From: a phage
Assembly: GCA_023551395.1 (NCBI GenBank)
Contig: GCA_023551395.1_3945.1
Reading direction: 5' to 3' (one strand)
Length of the DNA stretch: 64,000 nt
The notes below the pieces were generated by a model. The model was not told the DNA's origin. It saw only the letters and a program-made list of their open reading frames with translations, and did not search any database. The position numbers and the translations under genes were made by a program. This document shows positions 5,682-53,813 of the stretch, in pieces. Each line of letters starts with the position of its first letter. Within the stretch, counting starts at the first letter, position 1.

Positions 5682-6227
5682 TCAAAAGTGTCCTTTTACT
5701 TGTGGAACATAAATTTCAAAAGTTGCTTTACCATCCTCTGATGGTTTTGACTGTACCTTTGTAAATACACGGTTATCATACAGCTTCTCAAAGAAGTTTT
5801 CAAAAGGTAAATGCACAGTAGCCTCTTCAGTAACTTTATGGAAGACTGTATGGAACACCACACCAGCATACGGTAAAGCATTGACAAGGACACCTGCACC
5901 ACCAATTACAAAGACATCTTCATCAATAGAGCTATCAAGATACTTCAAAAATGCTCCAAAGGATTCTTTGCTGGCCTTAGCATACATTACACCATCTTTG
6001 CCAAAATCTATACCTAAGTATGGTACAGAATTTGTTAAGATTAGGTTTGCACGTTCTGGTAGAGGTTTACTACCCAGAGTCTTAAAAGTCTCATTACCCA
6101 TGACTACTAAGTTATTTTTAGTGAGTCTCTTAAACTCTTGCATGTCCTGTTTATGTCGAGGCCACGGCATACCAGTTGGAGTACCAAATTCACCGTTTTC
6201 ACCACTTGCAAATATCAGCTTAATCAT
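5682..6227 (-). CDS. folA: dihydrofolate reductase
   Basis: 181 aa; N-terminal MIKLIFA...GMPWP...F and LPERANLILT match DHFR signatures; immediately upstream of thymidylate synthase. Confidence 0.8.
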   Translation of the reverse strand: MIKLIFASGENGEFGTPTGMPWPRHKQDMQEFKRLTKNNLVVMGNETFKTLGSKPLPERANLILTNSVPYLGIDFGKDGVMYAKASKESFGAFLKYLDSSIDEDVFVIGGAGVLVNALPYAGVVFHTVFHKVTEEATVHLPFENFFEKLYDNRVFTKVQSKPSEDGKATFEIYVPQVKGHF

Positions 6228-6484
6228 TTTGTAAACCCTTTCTTAATGAACCAGTTGATGACACTCTTCACAACTTTACTACGATGGTAGATAAAATGTG
6301 GAGAGGGTTGGTATGAACCATAAGCCCAGAAAGCGATAATTTCATTACACCCTGTGCATCGGGTACTTTCTTCAGCAATATGACCGTTGACTATTTCACT
6401 TACCTCACCTTGTAAGTCTGTACACCCGCAATGTGGACATCGGATAGGTGTTCCATCAGACTCATAGCAGTGTTCAATTTTCAT
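6224..6484 (-). CDS. small zinc-ribbon protein
   Basis: CPHCGC ... CTGC cysteine pairs. Confidence 0.4.
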   Translation of the reverse strand: MKIEHCYESDGTPIRCPHCGCTDLQGEVSEIVNGHIAEESTRCTGCNEIIAFWAYGSYQPSPHFIYHRSKVVKSVINWFIKKGFTK

Positions 6485-12937: not shown

Positions 12938-13128
12938 TATTCAATGTCTATAAGCTCTTGTGCAATGCTTTTCAGATTACCTTTCAAGAAAACCTTCTCA
13001 GAACCTGAAAGAGATGAATTGTCAATTAACCTGTTCATTCTCTCAAACAACTTCTGCTTACGATTTTTGATAGTTTCCTTTGAAGCACCTTTCATCATCG
13101 CTGCATGGGTTCTTCCACGATGGCTCAT
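12919..13128 (-). CDS. hypothetical basic protein
   Basis: 69 aa ORF. Confidence 0.4.
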   Translation of the reverse strand: MSHRGRTHAAMMKGASKETIKNRKQKLFERMNRLIDNSSLSGSEKVFLKGNLKSIAQELIDIEYWRHQK

Positions 13129-13189
13129 AAGCCCTCCTATATAAGATATAGTATAAGGTACTCTTCCATGAGCACCTTGTCAACACTAA

Positions 13190-15889
13190 TTAGTGAACCT
13201 CAAGCCAGCTTTTACCAACCTTACCAGTACCTGTAACAAGCGTTTCTTTCTTAAGACCTAAGTTCTTAGAAGCTTGTCCATAATACCAGTCAGTAACTGC
13301 TTTCACTTCTGCCGTCATACTTTCTGGACATTCCCAACTCGTCTCGTCGTGATATGCGCAGAGTAAACGAGCACCAATAGCTGGTTTACGCCCATTTAAC
13401 TTCATTAAGCCTTCGTCAATCATACGACGGCAAGCAAGGTTAATTGCCTCATTTTGAATCTGAGCCTCTGAACCCATGAGCAAATAATTCAATAGCTTAT
13501 GCGGAGATTTACACCACAACCAAGCTCCAGCAACCTTTACAAAACCCCCTTTAGAGATTGCAGCAGTCTTACCAAACACCTCTTCAAGTGCCTTTTTAGT
13601 TGCTTTGTAGTCAGCTTCCAAGTCATCTAACAGCTTCTTAATTTTAGGCAAACGTATAAAGTAAGTCTGTTTAGTCAGCGCACCTTCCTGAGTAGTCGCA
13701 GCTTTAATCGTCTTAGCAAACTTCTCATCACCTGCACCGAACAGCAGTGCATAGATACCATTCTTAGCTTTCTTACGACCTTTGCTAATCTCATGAAGAA
13801 GATTCTCATCCTGAGTAGCTCGACAAGTCAAGATGTCCTGCTCATCATTCAAGCTAAAGTAAATACTGTTCAGTGTATGTGCATCAGTCCCTGAATAGAC
13901 AACGTACAGGTCATTCTCAGAGTCATAGCGAAGGTACTTATCAATCTCTGGGTTGAGGTACTCATCAAAGTGTTTGCAGTAATAGCGTCCATCTTCTTGA
14001 CGAATGAACTCAATTTCTTCTTTACCTTGCGTTACCGCTTTGGTGAAGTCTTTATCACCCATAAAGTTACAAAGTAGAACTAGCTGGGCTGAGTTCATAT
14101 CTACAGAGACAACGTTAGTACCTTCCTCACAAATCCACACTGCCCTCATTGGTTCCCCATAGACAGCAGCACCAGACGGTACGTTTACAATACCATATTG
14201 TGTCATACGTCCAGTTGAAGTACCAAACACCATTGCACCAGCACTAAGGCGACCATCAGGACGAATCTGGTTCAACCAACCTTTTTCATCATCCTTTGAG
14301 TTCTCAATAGTTCTGCGTCGGTGCATCAAAGTATAGTACTTAGCAATCTTCTGTCCAAGCTCACCTTCAATCGTATCATAAGATGATTCAGTAAGTTTTG
14401 GTGAAGTACGGATTAAGCAAGGCTCAAGCAAATCTGTGTACTTCTTCACAGACCAGTTATGCTCAATGTACTGTACACCTTCATGTTCAACATAGCTCAA
14501 ACCACACCGCTCAACCATTTCCTGCCACTTAGGATGTTTTGTAATCATCTTTTTATTGTCTTTGAAACGACAAACTTTGACAGGGCGACCGTCTGAGTCT
14601 TTCTTGTAGTTCCAGTCATCTGGAATCCAACCAACTGATTTCAAGTAGTCTTTTACAACTGCTACCTGAGTCATACGAGAAACTTCAAACTCAATTGGTG
14701 TATATGGTGCATCAATCAATCCTGTGTAGCGACTTGACTCAAGTTCAAAGTGGTTAACAACGTGGCTGTTATAGTACTTCACAGTTTTGACTGTTTTTAC
14801 TGGCTTCCAGTCTTTGCATTTCTTACCAATCTTTGCATTCAACTCATTGCAAATTGCACGAGCATCCTTCATTGCTACAAAGCCTTCCTTGTACTCTTCA
14901 CCAGTTACAGAGTTGGTTGGTGTATAGCAATTTCTCTTTTCAATGTTAAAAATCTTTGTAGTTGGCTTACCAAATGGTTTGATTTCATAAGTCTGCATCT
15001 CACCATTACGCACCTGCTGACGATACTTCGTCTTAGGGTACTTGGTAATTCTTTTCAGTCCATCTGCATGACCAAATGCTTCAACATACTCATTCCAAGC
15101 TTTTGCAAACTCTTCTCCAGTGACTTTACCTTTGGTCTTAATAGTTGGAGGTAGATGTGGTTCAACCTCTGAAGCAAGCTCATTAGTCAACTTGTCAAGT
15201 TCCTTTACATGGAACTCCATAAGCTCTTTATCAGCTTTCCAACCATTGATAGCTTGCTGGCTCATCCAGAAAGATGTTTCTTTAGCTCGCATGTAGGTTT
15301 CATAAGTATCTATGCCACACTTCTTAAGCTTGAGATACTCATTATCAAGTGCCCGTTTAGTTTTGGCGTTAATACGGATATCTTCTACAACACGAGTGAA
15401 GATTTCTGCATTCCACACACCCCAATGTTCAATCTCTGGTTTACGAACACCAACACGAGCACCCCATGCAGCCAAACCATGAGCACCTTTATAGCCCTTT
15501 GGAGTTGGTCTATCCATCCACTGAACACGAGACTGGATAAGAGAATCCTGAAAGAAATTACTCCACGGTTTACACTTTGGATTATCAAAGTTCCATAAAT
15601 CAGGTGCAATGTGATTGAAAACCCACCAGTCATAACCGAGACCATTATGGATGCAAAGACGTTTTGCCTTTAACGCAAACTCAATACCTTCACGTAAACC
15701 ACCCTTAATGTACTTGGTATACTTGTGACCGAGGATAGGTTCATCTGTAAAGACCCATACAGGTGGCTCTTCATCGTCAGATTTATAGTCTGCGAAAGCC
15801 ATTACGTGCACTTTAGTGAACTCAAGGAGTAAACCATCAGTTTCTGTATCACCAACTAAATGTAAGTTTTTAAAATCTACGTTTTCCAT
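13190..15889 (-). CDS. DNA polymerase, family A, with 3'-5' exonuclease domain
   Basis: Exo I motif DTETDGL; Pol A motif B KKAKNGIYALLFGAG; motif C YHDE. Start placed at MENVDF (15889) because a GAGGGAG RBS precedes it; the ORF track extends to 15919. Confidence 0.9.
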   Translation of the reverse strand: MENVDFKNLHLVGDTETDGLLLEFTKVHVMAFADYKSDDEEPPVWVFTDEPILGHKYTKYIKGGLREGIEFALKAKRLCIHNGLGYDWWVFNHIAPDLWNFDNPKCKPWSNFFQDSLIQSRVQWMDRPTPKGYKGAHGLAAWGARVGVRKPEIEHWGVWNAEIFTRVVEDIRINAKTKRALDNEYLKLKKCGIDTYETYMRAKETSFWMSQQAINGWKADKELMEFHVKELDKLTNELASEVEPHLPPTIKTKGKVTGEEFAKAWNEYVEAFGHADGLKRITKYPKTKYRQQVRNGEMQTYEIKPFGKPTTKIFNIEKRNCYTPTNSVTGEEYKEGFVAMKDARAICNELNAKIGKKCKDWKPVKTVKTVKYYNSHVVNHFELESSRYTGLIDAPYTPIEFEVSRMTQVAVVKDYLKSVGWIPDDWNYKKDSDGRPVKVCRFKDNKKMITKHPKWQEMVERCGLSYVEHEGVQYIEHNWSVKKYTDLLEPCLIRTSPKLTESSYDTIEGELGQKIAKYYTLMHRRRTIENSKDDEKGWLNQIRPDGRLSAGAMVFGTSTGRMTQYGIVNVPSGAAVYGEPMRAVWICEEGTNVVSVDMNSAQLVLLCNFMGDKDFTKAVTQGKEEIEFIRQEDGRYYCKHFDEYLNPEIDKYLRYDSENDLYVVYSGTDAHTLNSIYFSLNDEQDILTCRATQDENLLHEISKGRKKAKNGIYALLFGAGDEKFAKTIKAATTQEGALTKQTYFIRLPKIKKLLDDLEADYKATKKALEEVFGKTAAISKGGFVKVAGAWLWCKSPHKLLNYLLMGSEAQIQNEAINLACRRMIDEGLMKLNGRKPAIGARLLCAYHDETSWECPESMTAEVKAVTDWYYGQASKNLGLKKETLVTGTGKVGKSWLEVH

Positions 15890-18386: not shown

Positions 18387-20364
18387 AGGTCGTAAATTGA
18401 AAGAGGCTGGTCAGTTTGTTGGTCATTGCGCATGTCCACGTTGTGGTTCATCAGATGCTGGTTCAATCTATCATCATGACGATGGTTCTTATTCAATGAC
18501 TTGCTTTAGTTGTAACAAAGGTTTCCCAGAGTGGGATTTTGATAAAGGACAAATCGTGAGCACTTATTCTACTGGTTCAGACAATAAAAACCGTACTTTC
18601 CGTGGAATGGATTTAGACGATGTGAAAGAAAACCTTGAAGCGATGGACTTGAAAGACAGGAAGATTCCTGCAAAAGTTCTTGAGCGTTTGGGTATCAAGG
18701 TTGACATTGACAGTGATGGTGAAATTGACGCGCATTTCTACCCAACTTACAAACGCAATGAAGATGGCAAGCTAGAGCATGTTGGATACCGTGTTCGTCA
18801 CCGTTACCCAGAAGACCATCCAAAAGAGCACCTACGAGGTAAGTTAAAAGACTTTTCTGGTGGTGTTGGAGACATTAAAGGTGAACTGGCAATGTTCGGT
18901 TCATGGATTGCTCCAGAAGGTGGTAACCGTCTATTCATCTGGGAAGGTGAGATGGAATGTGCGACAGCAATCTATATGACTTCTCTTGCGATTAAGGACA
19001 AGTCTCGTCGTAAGAATTACTGTCACGTATCTGTTCCATCAGGTGCAAACATTAAGTCTATCAAAGACAACTATCAGTACATCACATCATTTGATGAGAT
19101 TTACTTGTGCTTTGATAACGATGAAGCAGGTGCTAAAGCTACCAAAGAGGCTGCTGGTATCCTACCTATTGAGAAGGTTCGCTTATTCCAGTATCCAGAA
19201 GGTGTAAAAGACCTTAACGAGTGGTGGACAAAGTTCTATAAAGAGAAAGATACAGTTCTGGAAGGATTTAAGCAGCGTATCTACAATGCACCTCGTTACT
19301 GTCCTGCTGGTATCAAGAACTTCGCAGATGGTTTTGAGGCAATGAAGAATCGTGGTCAGATTCCATTGATTCCTTTCCCAGAATCTTTCGGAGATTTGAA
19401 CAGACTGACTTATGGTGGTTACGGTTTAGGTGAGATTACAACTCTGGCAGCACCATCTTCAGTGGGTAAATCTGCATACACTCGTGAAATGATTTATACT
19501 GCTTGGAAAGATACCGATTACAATATTGGTGTAATTCCTGTAGAAGATACCTATGAAGAGTTGATGGAGATGCTCTGTGCAATCCACCTCAGCAAGCAGA
19601 TTTCTGAGATTCCTTATGACGAACGTGATTGGGATGAATTGAAGGAAGCACACGCAGAACTATCTAAAGGTCGTCGTATCCACATCGTAGACCATCAAGG
19701 GGCAATTGACCAAGATAACTTGCTGGAGTTTGTTGATTATCTTGTTAATAGCTTAGACTGTAAGATTATTATTCTTGACCCTATTACATTGGCTCTGTCA
19801 CGTTCCGATACGGATGAAGAAGAAGTCTTGTCTGAGTTATTGCGTCGTTGCAAGCGCTACCAGTATGCACAGGTGAACGTCTGTCACGTTCGTAAGAGCG
19901 CAGGGGGTCAGAAAGCCAACTCTGAAGGTGGAGATATCTCTGAAGAGGATATCAAAGGCTCTGGTGCGTATTTCCAGATTTCTATGAACAACATTCTGTT
20001 AATGCGTAACAAGGTTGACCCAGACCCTGTTAAGAAAAACTTGACAAAAATCAAGTTAACTAAGTGCCGTCGGCATGGTAAGTCAACTGGTATTGCTGGT
20101 CATACTTGGTACAATCCAGATACAGGACGTCTCATCAAAGCATCTGGTTGTGGAGTTGACATTGATGGTGCAGCAGAAAACATTCGCCAGCAGTTTGGTA
20201 TTGGTGAAGCTGAAGACCATTACGATGACTCTTTGCCACATTATGAGGATGAAGTGTTTGACCGTGAGACTGGTGAAGTCTATACTGAAGAGCAGCGTCA
20301 AAGCTCAACGATTCCCCCTGTATTAAGTGAGGATGTAGATGACTGCCCGTTCGAAACTGAGTGA
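18373..20364 (+). CDS. bifunctional primase-helicase (T7 gp4-like)
   Basis: N-terminal zinc ribbon CACPRCG...CFSCN; TOPRIM region EGEMECATA ... FDNDEAG; helicase Walker A APSSVGKSAYT and Walker B IIILDPI. Confidence 0.9.
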   Translation: MLMSKGRKLKEAGQFVGHCACPRCGSSDAGSIYHHDDGSYSMTCFSCNKGFPEWDFDKGQIVSTYSTGSDNKNRTFRGMDLDDVKENLEAMDLKDRKIPAKVLERLGIKVDIDSDGEIDAHFYPTYKRNEDGKLEHVGYRVRHRYPEDHPKEHLRGKLKDFSGGVGDIKGELAMFGSWIAPEGGNRLFIWEGEMECATAIYMTSLAIKDKSRRKNYCHVSVPSGANIKSIKDNYQYITSFDEIYLCFDNDEAGAKATKEAAGILPIEKVRLFQYPEGVKDLNEWWTKFYKEKDTVLEGFKQRIYNAPRYCPAGIKNFADGFEAMKNRGQIPLIPFPESFGDLNRLTYGGYGLGEITTLAAPSSVGKSAYTREMIYTAWKDTDYNIGVIPVEDTYEELMEMLCAIHLSKQISEIPYDERDWDELKEAHAELSKGRRIHIVDHQGAIDQDNLLEFVDYLVNSLDCKIIILDPITLALSRSDTDEEEVLSELLRRCKRYQYAQVNVCHVRKSAGGQKANSEGGDISEEDIKGSGAYFQISMNNILLMRNKVDPDPVKKNLTKIKLTKCRRHGKSTGIAGHTWYNPDTGRLIKASGCGVDIDGAAENIRQQFGIGEAEDHYDDSLPHYEDEVFDRETGEVYTEEQRQSSTIPPVLSEDVDDCPFETE

Positions 20365-50377: not shown

Positions 50378-50908
50378 ATGAACAAATTTCAAGCTATCAA
50401 CTTCATTCGTTCAAATGCTGTAATGTCTAAGCCTGTAAAAGATACATACGAATTCCGTTGTAATGGGGTACATTTCGCAACAATCACCAAATCAGAAAAC
50501 GGGGCTTATTACGTTCATCGTCGTAATGTTGCAACCGTTGTAGTCTCTCACTTTATGCAAGCTGTAGCGGAATTATTACCGTTATTCTTAGAGATTTACT
50601 TAGATGAGTGTAAAAACGTTCACAACCACGTTAAAAGCCTTTTAAACGGTTATAAAATGGCTTATGAACGCTCTATCAAGTCCTTAAACAAGTTTTACAA
50701 TGCACCTGCAAATACTGTTTCAATGGCTTATGATGTAAATGGTGAGTTAGTTAGTCTCTTTAAAGTGGAAGAAATTAAACTGTATAATTTACGTCCTAGT
50801 GGTTACTCTAAGACTCTTGGTGAAGGTTTAACATTCAATATCAAGAACTTAGAAAAAACTTTAAAAGATATTGAAAAAGATATTGACGAGACAATCAAAA
50901 GTCTGTAA
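50378..50908 (+). CDS. hypothetical protein (cluster gene 12)
   Basis: 176 aa; type A leader with covarying hairpin GGGAAGGC-AATA-GCCTCCCC. Confidence 0.5.
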   Translation: MNKFQAINFIRSNAVMSKPVKDTYEFRCNGVHFATITKSENGAYYVHRRNVATVVVSHFMQAVAELLPLFLEIYLDECKNVHNHVKSLLNGYKMAYERSIKSLNKFYNAPANTVSMAYDVNGELVSLFKVEEIKLYNLRPSGYSKTLGEGLTFNIKNLEKTLKDIEKDIDETIKSL

Positions 50909-50974
50909 ATTGTCAATCAACGGGGAGGGAATGACCTTCCCCACTAAATAAAATCCTAAACTGGAGTTATCAAG

Positions 50975-51238
50975 ATGGAAAACGTAGAATTAACCACACT
51001 TTTACAAATTGCAACCGACAAAGAAGATGTAGCATTATTTCACCGTATCGAAAGTGATTTGTTCAATGGTGAAATCATCAAAGAATCTTACGAAGTTGTT
51101 GGATTCAAAGATGGTAAAGCGTTTGGCTTTTTTGACCTCGATAAAGGCAACGCTGTTACAAAGTATGATGTTGTATCTTGTGAGATTCTTACAAAATACA
51201 ACGAAAAAAGGCTTGCAACATACGCCAATATGCAGTAA
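50975..51238 (+). CDS. hypothetical small protein (cluster gene 13)
   Basis: 87 aa; TTGACG-17 nt-TAAATT promoter and type A leader. Confidence 0.5.
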   Translation: MENVELTTLLQIATDKEDVALFHRIESDLFNGEIIKESYEVVGFKDGKAFGFFDLDKGNAVTKYDVVSCEILTKYNEKRLATYANMQ

Positions 51239-51304
51239 ATTACTAATCAACGGGAGGCGATAACCTCCCCACTAAATAAAACCCTTAAACTAGGAGATTC
51301 AAAA

Positions 51305-51553
51305 ATGGCAACTATCCGCGCTACTGTTAACGAGTTCGGTTTTTCCTCTCTGGATGTTAAATTTGACATTACAGGCACTGATAACGCCTTTGAAATGGTG
51401 AAAGGTCTTATCAGTCAGACCATCAAAGATTATAATCCTTCGGATGAGTTCTGGGAGGAAACAAAACAAGAAGTTATCAAGGATGGTTATACTTATCACT
51501 ATTGGGGAGAAAAAATCGTCTCCCTGTACTACAACAAACAAGATTATAACTAA
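51305..51553 (+). CDS. hypothetical small protein (cluster gene 14)
   Basis: 82 aa; type A leader with variant hairpin GGGAGG-CGATAA-CCTCCC. Confidence 0.5.
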   Translation: MATIRATVNEFGFSSLDVKFDITGTDNAFEMVKGLISQTIKDYNPSDEFWEETKQEVIKDGYTYHYWGEKIVSLYYNKQDYN

Positions 51554-51589
51554 TCGACGCAGCGGGGCTAAATAGCCCCAGATACCTGA

Positions 51590-51616
51590 AAAGCTCCTTC
51601 TCATAGGGGCTTTTTT
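51590..51616 (+). terminator. Rho-independent terminator ending the small-gene cluster
   Basis: Hairpin followed by TTTTTT at 51607-51616. Confidence 0.45.
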
Positions 51617-51619
51617 ACG

Positions 51620-53180
51620 TCTATTGAATCATTATACAATCCCTTTCCCTCACCTTTCCAGAATCTTATCAGACCTTAAAAGCAATAACTCTATAGTCTA
51701 CTCTATAACCTTTTATCAAATCAACTTAAATAAAAGCCAATAACCCCAGAAAGGGGATGGCCCATTTAAACGCTCTATAAAGCTCTATAACAGCCTTATC
51801 AACCTAACTTAAGGGATTGCATTAACCAACCTTAAAAAGCTCTTTACAGGGCTTTATAGAGGCTTAAAAGAATCTTATAAGGTTATAAGCTTTATTATCT
51901 CGTTAGCTATCTTGTGAACTACTAAAAAGGGCTTGTTATTGTCTTAAAAGTATGTTATATGGGCTTTAAAGTTACTTTGAAGTAGCTTAAAAGTTACGTA
52001 AATGCTAGCCCCCTTAACATTTTCTTAACAATTTCTTAACAAACCCTACATAGTTATGCTTTTAAGGCACTTGTTAGCAACTTGTTAGTCCCTTGTTAAA
52101 TCTCTGTTAAGACCACGTAAAAGCCTTGTAAGAGTCTTTGACATAGCCTTTAAAGCCCCTGTAAAGCCCTATAAAGAGGTATCTGTACAGTTGGGGGGTA
52201 GATACTAGGAAGAGACTTAAAAGAGCTTACAAGGAGCTATAGAGAGCTTTTAAGAGGTATGTTTAAAGAATCACTAAGAAAGGAAAGGGAACGATAAGAA
52301 AAGAGATAGTGACCATGTTAATAGCTTGTTAAAAAGATTAAACACTTGTTAGAGACTTGTTAATTATCTTAACAAAATAACTCTTAAAAATTAACTTGTT
52401 AGCTCTTGTTAGCCATCTGTTAAGACTCTGTAAAGCCTATGTATCAACTGTTAAGAAACTGTTACGCTCTTGTTAGTTCTGTTGAGAATCTGTTAAGACC
52501 TTTGAAGAGATGTTAAGGAGATGTGAGAACTGTTAAGAGATTGTTAAGGATATTTTAAAATTTTGCAAAGTACTTGTAAGGGAGCTGTTAAGGGCTACCA
52601 AGCAGATATACATCTTCTACAGATATTTTTCAGTTCCTTCAAAGACCCTAAAAAATGACTTGATAGTCCTATTTTATAAAAATTTTAAAAATCTGAATAA
52701 TTACCTATACAGTCTTTCTAAAATACAGGTAATAACAGGCTTATAAGATACCTTGTTAGTACCGTGTTAGACCTTGTGAGATAAGGTCTGTAAAGATATT
52801 CCTGTTAAGTTTGTTAAAACAGTCTATATAGAGGCTTAGTAATACCTAGTGAACACCTATAGAGAGTGTCATAGCTAACCTAGAGATTAAGAGGTGTATA
52901 GGAGCTTCTAAGAGGGTATAGAAAGATGGTTAAGGTGATTGTATAGGTTGTTAAGAAGGCTTGTTAGAGGGCTTGTTAGAAGGGTTATACAGAGGGCTAT
53001 TAAGACCACTAGATAGATACTAAGATACTATATAGTACTATATAACTATATATAGAGAGTAAGCTTAAGAAGGTTGTTAAGAAGGGTAGATATTTTGTTC
53101 ACATATGATGGTGACCCAGAGGTTGGGACAACCGATAAAAATTTTATAAAAATTAAAAAGCCCCCAATTAAGGAGGCTCT
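51620..53180. repeat. 1.5 kb ORF-free region with dense short direct repeats
   Basis: More than 25 copies of (C)TTGTTAG / CTGTTAAGA / TGTTAAG at 9-12 bp spacing (densest 52040-52120, 52320-52560, 52740-52800, 52920-52990), plus repeated CTATAAAG/CTTTATAGA motifs; lies between convergent gene blocks. Confidence 0.7.
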
Positions 53181-53189
53181 TAAGATATT

Positions 53190-53813
53190 TTAAATCAGTG
53201 TTTCCAGAACTGTTTTTAATGATGACTTGGTTGTCTGATAAAAATGAGTAAAGCCATTGTTGTTATCAAATACCTGCATCATGATATCATCTCCCTTGAT
53301 TGGGTACACTCGGATATCATAGTGAAAACCATTAAAGACACAAGAGCCATTACAGAATGCACTAAAGTCATCAACTGAGATATACTCTTCATGTCCTGTG
53401 ATTTTTATACAAACACCTTTACTCGGTCTCTTAGGGTTGATATCTTCCATCACAGACATACTCTGTCCACCAAGAGATACCATAGTGACCACTTTACGGT
53501 TCTTCTGTCTAAAGTACATTTTAACTTTCTGCAAAGTGTCTTCATAGAACGGATAAGACCTTTCTACAAAGATTCCTTCAAGTGGCTCTTTACCATTTTC
53601 AACTTCTCTGTTATGCCGTACTGCAAAGATAATTTGTTCGAACCAGTCAAGATTTTCTTCGGAGAGTGCTTCCCGAACATCCTTCCAGTCAAGTACTAAG
53701 TAGTTACCTTCAACTTCTTTTAAGTTATCTTTTTCCATATCTATCACACCATTATCGTAAAACTTGATATTCTGGTACTGCGAATTTATTACTATTGTTC
53801 TTGATGAGGTCAT
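53190..53813 (-). CDS. hypothetical protein
   Basis: 207 aa; start may be the internal Met near 53738. Confidence 0.45.
   Translation of the reverse strand: MTSSRTIVINSQYQNIKFYDNGVIDMEKDNLKEVEGNYLVLDWKDVREALSEENLDWFEQIIFAVRHNREVENGKEPLEGIFVERSYPFYEDTLQKVKMYFRQKNRKVVTMVSLGGQSMSVMEDINPKRPSKGVCIKITGHEEYISVDDFSAFCNGSCVFNGFHYDIRVYPIKGDDIMMQVFDNNNGFTHFYQTTKSSLKTVLETLI

Follow-up and report, generated by a model that had tools for sequence, protein, structure and literature searches.

The noncoding stretch at positions 51554–53189 of the window (the whole 64,000 nucleotides of phage DNA analyzed here) is probably a T7-like packaging and processing site for a direct terminal repeat (DTR), located at the junction between concatemeric genomes and carrying arrays of short phased units that would bind a candidate recognition protein. 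By homology, the source phage is a Felixounavirus, a Felix O1-like myophage of the Ounavirinae; phages of the Felix O1 type are widely used in the typing and biocontrol of Salmonella and E. coli. A search with the 1.6-kb region as the query matched 256 phage records at 75–96% identity, nearly all of which belong to Felixounavirus or Mooglevirus (Ounavirinae) and have Escherichia, Salmonella, Shigella, or Citrobacter as hosts, and both the G+C content (35–42%) and the gene order near ORFs of rIIA/rIIB size agree with the assignment. Felix O1 has been reported to contain a 57-bp repeat, whose stem-loop core is absent from the 64-kb window at up to 3 mismatches, and the repeats listed in the available portions of the Felix O1 genome paper are others than the arrays described here (PMC3185647). 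The terminal repeat of the genus is already published; the anatomy of its arrays appears to be undescribed in the searchable literature on Felix O1-like phages. The features of the region and its immediate context are as follows.

51305..51553, plus strand: gene closest to the right genome end, encoding an 82-aa homologue of Felix O1 gp23 (ORF; PHROG 4559, a family without assigned function); context, outside the repeat region
51564..51616, plus strand: two terminator-like hairpins ending the plus-strand gene cluster, read from the sequence
51640..52007, no strand assigned: upstream flank array, 15 exact CTNNNNAG units; in the virion, this unique sequence adjoins the right-hand DTR copy on its inner side
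52008..52599, no strand assigned: DTR of ~592 bp, placed by homology to relatives with mapped ends; left physical end GCCCCCTTAACA, right physical end TGTTAAGGGCTACC
52014..52041, minus strand: three TTAACA units (reversed TGTTAA) in 11-bp steps directly inside the left cut; TAACA on the plus strand at 52015, 52026, and 52037
52059..52254, plus strand: first direct array in the DTR, comprising CTTTTAAG, CTTGTTAG twice, CTTGTTAA, CTGTTAAG, CTTGTAAG, CTTTAAAG, CTGTAAAG, CTATAAAG, and others in a 10–12-bp register
52314..52599, plus strand: second and densest direct array, of (C/T)TGTTA(A/G) units, up to the right cut
52586..52613, no strand assigned: right cut-site block, TGTTAAGGGCTACC / AAGCAGATATACA(T/C), with 27 of 28 nt invariant in 13 aligned genomes
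52600..53100, no strand assigned: downstream flank array, 16 exact CTNNNNAG units together with degenerate copies; in the virion, this unique sequence adjoins the left-hand DTR copy on its inner side
53156..53181, minus strand: Rho-independent terminator ending the minus-strand gene block, from a consensus scan; also annotated in KhF1 at the corresponding position
53190..53813, minus strand: gene closest to the left genome end, encoding 207 aa (ORF; PHROG 4330, a family without assigned function; no Pfam match); context only

Genome Ends and the Direct Terminal Repeat

The records of at least 10 independently deposited relatives start at the equivalent of position 52008 and/or stop at the equivalent of position 52599. 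In vB_EcoM-Ro111lw, the first 613 nt are 100% identical to the last 613 nt and map to positions 52008 and 52599 of the window; the record opens 1214 bp before the first minus-strand gene and closes 1077 bp after the last plus-strand gene, and a non-permuted DTR of 613 bp was obtained for this phage with PhageTerm (PMC6454146). Similarly, ZX4221 has a 591-nt DTR that is 100% identical at both record ends and has the same end bases as the window DTR, and in the records of ECP2307, H12, I14.1, CRP22, NBEco005, SPJ41, pEP20, and Citrobacter phage HP1, the start or the end falls on one of these bases. For HP1 (Mooglevirus), a repeat_region matching the window DTR is annotated at 1–570. Given this annotation and the several records that are opened at their termini, the statement in the preliminary description that nothing in the standard annotation explains the region was too strong.

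Direct experiments were reported for UAB_Phi87, in which a DTR of 608 bp was determined by Bal31 digestion and run-off sequencing; cohesive ends were not found, the restriction pattern was unaltered by heat, and the Bal31-sensitive bands were discrete (PMC4837284). The terminal fragments that are sensitive to Bal31, as given in the available part of that paper, flank the locus of the window DTR. The GenBank record of UAB_Phi87 is not opened at the termini, and the published SpeI terminal fragments were used instead: fragments of 4435 and 2747 bp are predicted from the boundaries determined here, versus published sizes of 4322 and 2819 bp, and this agreement within 72–113 bp places the ends of UAB_Phi87 at this locus to ~100 bp. 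Short DTRs have also been reported, again in text available in part, for the Erwinia phages of Kolesnikvirus (PMC11984208), and the record of one Erwinia phage, Prophecy, begins at the homologous AGCCAC...TTAACA. The DTRs of UAB_Phi87, vB_EcoM-Ro111lw, and Kolesnikvirus thus lie at the same locus as the window DTR, which shares 88–96% identity with the published Felix O1-like repeats.

Taken together, the record ends of the relatives and the UAB_Phi87 experiments indicate that the ORF-free stretch is a concatemer junction containing one copy of the DTR and both of its flanks; the DTR is present as a single copy in the window because the assembly is of a circular style. The ends of this phage are assigned by homology, which shows that virion DNA should start at 52008 and stop at 52599 and that 52008–52599 should be carried at both ends. 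The two marks of a T7-type DTR, namely fixed ends and a repeat at both of them, are present in the relatives and by homology would apply to this phage as well. The TerL of UAB_Phi87, whose counterpart gene is located outside the window, contains Terminase_6N/6C domains (Pfam) and falls in the “Felixounalikevirus DTR group” of a published tree (PMC4837284).

Two other kinds of packaging site were considered. The pac site of a headful system does not fit the end coordinates, which are identical and precise across the independent records of the relatives. A lambda-like cos site does not agree with the lack of an IHF consensus in the region, with the behavior of UAB_Phi87, which is not that of a cos phage in the available part of the report (PMC4837284), or with the duplication of 570–613 bp that is found instead.

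The Gap and its Flanking Genes

The plus-strand gene cluster stops at 51553 and the minus-strand block at 53190, so that, as noted in the preliminary description, the arrangement is convergent, with the genes on either side transcribed toward the physical genome ends. That description had also found no credible ORF in the gap, which holds at 51554–53189: just four ORFs of 31–39 aa are present, with frame-breaking indels in the relatives, and the many indels of 10, 11, and 22–23 bp among 13 aligned relatives imply that no reading frame is conserved, even though several relatives' records annotate small ORFs within the repeat region. The comparison with related phages that had been suggested as a check on this point accordingly revealed no conserved ORF, and the relatives' records begin or end inside the stretch.

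In FO1a, gp23 is annotated at the position equivalent to 51305..51553, and the Felix O1 gp23 protein (9.7 kDa) was found in virions by mass spectrometry, according to the available part of the genome paper (PMC3185647). No DNA-binding domain was recognizable in gp23 by PHROG and Pfam scans. Terminator-like hairpins bound the repeat region on both sides. The two at 51564..51616 consist of GGGGCT-AAAT-AGCCCC followed by AAGCTCC-loop-GGGGCTT and a T run, and they are regarded as putative terminators, since the consensus terminator scan did not list them; the records of vB_EcoM_ASO1A/B list two terminators somewhere within the match to 51600–53200. The terminator of the minus-strand block was the sole feature to stand out in the promoter and terminator scan of the region, in which sigma-70 promoters showed no excess (8 versus 7.1 expected). 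An Rfam scan of 51200–53500 yielded just two sub-threshold chance matches.

Number, Spacing, and Orientation of the Repeat Units

Relative to 1000 dinucleotide-preserving shuffles, the region 51554–53189 is strongly enriched in the octamer CTNNNNAG, of which 63 exact copies are present versus 11.7 ± 3.2 in the shuffles (z = 16). The motif frequency is therefore far above the expectation from composition, which was the control that the preliminary description had set for its motif, and the claim that more than 25 short copies are spaced about one helical turn apart was likewise borne out, with 27 copies of CTTGTTA/CTGTTAA/TTGTTAA (0.9 ± 1.0 in the shuffles) at a spacing of 10–12 bp. Approximately 30 further copies of CTNNNNAG with one mismatch occur in the 10–12-bp register, and the CTTGTTAG-like and CTATAAAG-like repeats share this octamer as one common frame. 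YTGTTAR occurs 23 times (1.1 in the shuffles), and TGTTA is found 29 times on the plus strand (3.0 in the shuffles) and 6 times on the minus strand. In total, the region contains ~85 short phased units, very degenerate, of 8 bp each at a pitch of ~11 bp over 1.5 kb; the spacings between neighbors cluster at 10–12, 21–23, 31–33, and 42–44 bp, and Tandem Repeats Finder also reported periods of 10–12 bp in the region. The density per 500-bp bin is 12–22 units here versus a mean of 2.4, and no comparable bin exists elsewhere in the 64-kb window.

Direct short repeats beside AT-rich DNA are also seen in iteron origins, and a replication origin was among the four roles proposed in the preliminary description. 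An initiator would then use the repeats as iterons, with unwinding at the AT-rich patches that they adjoin (~52663–52700 and ~53130–53160), a function that could coexist with that of genome ends. The cumulative GC skew peaks near 52–53 kb, and in T7 the annotated promoters phiOL and phiOR, which are associated with secondary origins, adjoin the junction. However, the turn in the GC skew is explained by the coincident switch of gene strand, and ~85 units of 8 bp at an 11-bp pitch differ in both size and number from the handful of 17–22-bp iterons of a typical origin. None of the IHF, DnaA, Fis, and Chi consensus sites is enriched in the region, which contains no DnaA box or IHF site; the neighboring genes belong to PHROGs without assigned function, with no initiator-like gene among them, and there is no promoter excess to prime replication. 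With the AT-rich patches as the one defining feature that does exist, we consider an iteron-type origin very unlikely.

The phasing of the units also bears on the possibility that the region is an architectural or end-handling element that acts apart from the terminase, through curved DNA or through binding of a protein, either a nucleoid protein of the host or a virion component such as gp23. Such an element could shield the ends from exonucleases, hold the end that is packaged last at the portal, or set the pace of DNA ejection, as has been proposed for the repeat-rich regions of the T5 terminal repeat. The AA/TT periodicity at 10–11.5 bp in 51401–52600 ranks with the highest values of the window, the units are located at and beside both physical ends, and the product of the gene adjoining the right end is a small protein found in virions. 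On the other hand, coding DNA at 50.4–51.4 kb is similarly periodic, so that the signal is not specific to the region; IHF, Fis, and DnaA sites are not enriched, the scans of gp23 give no hint of DNA binding, and nothing links the units to ejection. This alternative therefore appears unlikely. Of the roles in the preliminary description, the packaging or terminase region is supported by the ends of the relatives and the DTR of UAB_Phi87, and the partition-like site and the nucleoid organizer are without support; the five nearest ORFs of the window, which speak for the neighborhood only, match PHROGs without assigned function, and none is annotated as a partition protein.

Anatomy of the Arrays

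In the upstream flank, the units are mainly of a near-palindromic CTTWWAAG type (CTTAAAAG, CTTTAAAG, CTTATAAG, and CTATAAAG) and are 10–11 bp apart. The DTR itself contains 28 exact units at 52008–52599. Its TTAACA trio lies within the first 35 nt, accounts for three of the six inverted copies of the region, forms the sole tandem inverted run there, and is conserved in 13 of 13 aligned relatives; all of the DTR units downstream of it are in direct orientation. Nucleotide similarity to the Erwinia Kolesnikvirus phages is detectable only at the second direct array (query 933–1059, corresponding to 52486–52612 of the window). In the right cut-site block, the single variable base is the outermost one, even though four of the 13 genomes are just 75–79% identical overall. 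The downstream flank units include CTTGTTAG, CTGTTAAG, CTATATAG, and TTGTTAAG, and the first of the AT-rich patches lies among them.

When the left end is read inward on the top strand, tgcta is followed by the cut and then by GCCCCCTTAACA / GCCCCCTTAACAttttCTTAACA; when the right end is read inward on the bottom strand, tgctt is followed by the cut and then by GGTAGCCCTTAACA / GGTAGCCCTTAACAgctcccTTACAA. The right end of Felix O1, read inward on the bottom strand in the same manner, has ...TTAACA as its last unit. Because the DTR opens with three inverted TTAACA units and closes with a direct TGTTAAG array, the two cut sites resemble each other in the inward direction.

Conservation of the Repeat Region

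Thirteen relatives were aligned, four of which are divergent (75–79% overall identity). The signal was modest when conservation was scored position by position, and a clearer one was obtained from joint retention of the four fixed bases of the motif (C, T, A, and G): all four are kept in 60% of the site-by-divergent-genome cells, compared with 39% for the same four-base mask at other offsets, and none of 5000 random offset sets reached the observed 60%, values to be read with the mutual relatedness of the four divergent genomes and the bias that repeats can introduce into an alignment in mind. Retention of the spacer bases in the same test was 24%. Each genome carries 51–65 motifs, even at an identity as low as 75%. 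Conservation of the non-coding region exceeds that of the genes that flank it: relative to Mooglevirus, the repeat region is 75–79% identical and the adjoining gp23 gene 69–72% identical, and most of the first 250 nt of the other flanking gene cannot be aligned.

Among indels of at least 5 bp, 20 events of 10–12 bp and 12 events of 21–25 bp were counted, and the DTR lengths across ~90 records cluster at 570, 580, 591, 602, and 613 bp; these 11-bp quanta indicate that the register of the units is preserved. Erwinia phage Prophecy has just 85–127 nt of BLAST-detectable similarity to the region, yet its layout resembles that of the window, with TAACA at nt 20, 31, and 42 (counted from the left end) and, beyond these copies, TGTTA arrays in direct orientation that extend to ~nt 395. 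In its upstream flank, arrays are present at the same place and are built from a different unit, (C)TTCTAA(G/A).

These data can be set against a further alternative, namely that the region is a largely neutral, degenerate 11-bp minisatellite that has grown by slippage or unequal exchange and in which only a few bases at the cut sites are functional. The region is the genome's only sizeable non-coding gap, the indels are of whole units, the units are highly degenerate, and the flank unit differs by genus; in addition, most T7 end loci tolerate insertions (bioRxiv 10.1101/2024.10.10.617714), so that such arrays may be nonessential. Neutral growth does not, however, account for framework bases that are conserved well above both the spacers and random offsets, for a region more conserved than its flanking genes, for an array orientation and layout that are kept across genera with barely alignable sequences, or for the strong strand bias of TGTTA (29 versus 6), and we regard it as quite unlikely. 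Parts of this evidence nevertheless weigh on the packaging reading as well: the tolerance of insertions in T7 counts against it, indels of unit length can arise from slippage alone, and the difference in flank units between genera fits a structural or neutral role of the flanks as well as it fits binding. The uniform orientation of the T7 units likewise counts against that reading.

Comparison with Known Packaging Sites

The region resembles the ends of T7 and T3 in having a short, exact, non-permuted DTR within non-coding DNA. The likeness to T7 extends to phased units of 7–8 bp, far more frequent than expected by chance, in the repeat and in both flanks. The T7 unit is CCTAAAG, occurring every ~12–14 bp, and in both phages the units are AT-rich, with AAG as their last three bases; the flanking short-repeat series of T7 were reportedly named SRL and SRR by Dunn and Studier in 1983. 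We know of no function that has been established for that series. The two systems also differ in several respects. The DTR is 160 bp in T7 and 592 bp here; ~20–25 loose CCTAAAG-like matches surround the T7 junction, whereas ~85 units are present over 1.5 kb here; the pitch is 13 bp in T7 and 11 bp here, where the unit is CTNNNNAG/TGTTAAG; and the T7 units are all in one orientation, whereas those described here flip at the left end. The T7 junction is flanked by the promoters A0–A3, phiOL, and phiOR, none of which has an apparent counterpart here, where the flanking genes are transcribed toward the ends.

Terminase sites composed of repeated binding sites for the small subunit are known from lambda (the R sites of cosB) and SPP1 (the pacL and pacR boxes). 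As in the present arrays, several short repeats are located near the cut and are phased for an oligomer on one face of the DNA. To our knowledge, no TerS homologue is known in the Felix O1-like phages. The lambda and SPP1 sites differ in having 3–7 units and in belonging to cos or headful systems, whereas UAB_Phi87 is without cohesive ends in the available part of its description (PMC4837284); lambda cosB also differs in its IHF site, which has no equivalent here. A further contrast with T7 is that the present phage is a myovirus, for which the TerL of UAB_Phi87 indicates the T4-type fold family (Terminase_6N/6C) and for which the genome paper, in its available part, recognizes no small terminase (PMC3185647). 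The available parts of the reports on UAB_Phi87, vB_EcoM-Ro111lw, and Kolesnikvirus give the existence and length of the repeat only, and phased units, an inverted arrangement at the cuts, or flank arrays are not mentioned there (PMC4837284, PMC6454146, PMC11984208).

A Model for Recognition and Processing of the Junction

With one unit per ~11 bp, the units would all lie on nearly one face of the helix. In the packaging model that we favor, the ~85 phased 8-bp units would offer the packaging or end-processing machinery a lattice of weak sites; this machinery would consist of the large terminase and a further putative recognition protein. We infer that the phased units are protein-binding sites; the preliminary description had likewise read the repeats as an array of sites for a DNA-binding protein, which is consistent with the pattern of conservation, with binding itself as the inferred part. 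Since the outermost units are oppositely oriented at the two DTR boundaries, the complex could adopt the same protein-DNA geometry 6–8 nt inside each cut. Nicks on opposite strands, at 52007/52008 on the top strand and at 52599/52600 on the bottom strand, would then produce 5′ overhangs, and strand-displacement synthesis over 592 bp would provide each daughter genome with a full copy of the DTR. A staggered-nick scheme of this type has long been proposed for T7.

A more specific proposal, that a putative small-terminase-like protein of the Ounavirinae has the TGTTAAG/TTAACA lattice as its recognition site and that the inverted arrangement at the boundaries places the staggered nicks on opposite strands, is offered tentatively, as a possibility rather than an expectation. 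Small terminases are not recognized in the Felix O1-like family in the available parts of two reports (PMC3185647, PMC4837284), and a search for the putative binder that covered the flanking proteins and, in UAB_Phi87, a 66-aa ORF located upstream of the TerL gene gave no informative PHROG or Pfam match.

Implications and Distribution of the Arrays

We know of no phage with a short, exact DTR, T7 included, in which recognition of the junction and copying of the repeat have been resolved. The present analysis supplies predicted cut sites at base level, mirror-image arrays, apparent selection on the framework bases, and 11-bp quanta of length. If the small-terminase-like reading were true, it would provide the first account at the sequence level of how a short DTR is measured and duplicated, and the gain or loss of 11-bp units within the arrays would explain the 11-bp steps of DTR length. 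The anatomy also makes concrete and inexpensive experiments possible on recognition in phages that have no recognizable small terminase. For annotation, records of the genus would best be opened at the equivalents of position 52008, with the repeat region left free of small ORFs. In a scan of a viral-contig collection for TGTTAAG-N4-TGTTAAG, the matches were mainly single and due to chance, and the dense arrays all belonged to Ounavirinae relatives but for one.

Length variation and small ORFs in the terminal region

Insertions and deletions in the non-coding region (51554–53189) and in the homologous regions of 13 relatives are quantised, with steps of 10–12 bp and 21–25 bp, and the direct terminal repeat falls into length classes of 570, 580, 591, 602, and 613 bp across approximately 90 records. 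In several GenBank records, tiny ORFs of 25–50 amino acids are annotated as “hypothetical protein” within this non-coding terminal region, for example:

L018 (a relative's record), 805–1928: annotated tiny ORFs
L024 (a relative's record), 13025–13812: annotated tiny ORFs

These ORFs are judged from sequence comparison to be almost certainly spurious, because indels among the relatives break the reading frames.

Genes at the right genome end and beside the large terminase gene

Two small genes were considered, the second in UAB_Phi87 (L023), a relative with an experimentally mapped terminal repeat:

51305–51553, plus strand: final gene ahead of the right genome end, with an acidic product of 82 amino acids; PHROG 4559, counterpart of Felix O1 gp23
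UAB_Phi87 18487–18687 (outside the window): conserved ORF of 66 amino acids, directly upstream of the large terminase gene, PHROG 4397

Pfam scans of the two products returned no match. The gene directly at the genome end encodes a small protein whose Felix O1 counterpart is a virion protein, gp23 having been found in purified virions by mass spectrometry, according to a passage in PMC3185647. The family that includes UAB_Phi87 and the Felix O1-like phages is described, in passages of PMC3185647 and PMC4837284, as being without a small terminase. The product of the 66-amino-acid ORF is a candidate recognition subunit, since this ORF adjoins the large terminase gene.

A similar array in an unrelated contig

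A non-coding array of xTGTTAAG/GTAAAC units with a pitch of approximately 11 bp, closely resembling that in the window, is located at 6100–6400 of IMGVR_UViG_3300021255_002554 (L025), a viral contig of higher GC content that is unrelated to the phage studied here. No nucleotide similarity was found between this contig and the window, and the genes near its array are assigned to PHROGs other than those of the window neighbours. A promoter-like site and a plus-strand ORF lie downstream of the array, which could be a parallel case in a separate phage lineage.

Sequence composition

GATC, the target tetranucleotide of Dam/MboI/DpnII-type enzymes, is totally avoided in the 64-kb window, with no occurrence on either strand (positions 1–64000), whereas dinucleotide-preserving shuffles would give 184 ± 13. 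The coding stretch that closely precedes the non-coding region (50401–51400) has unusually strong AA/TT periodicity at 10–11.5 bp, which ranks among the highest values in the window.
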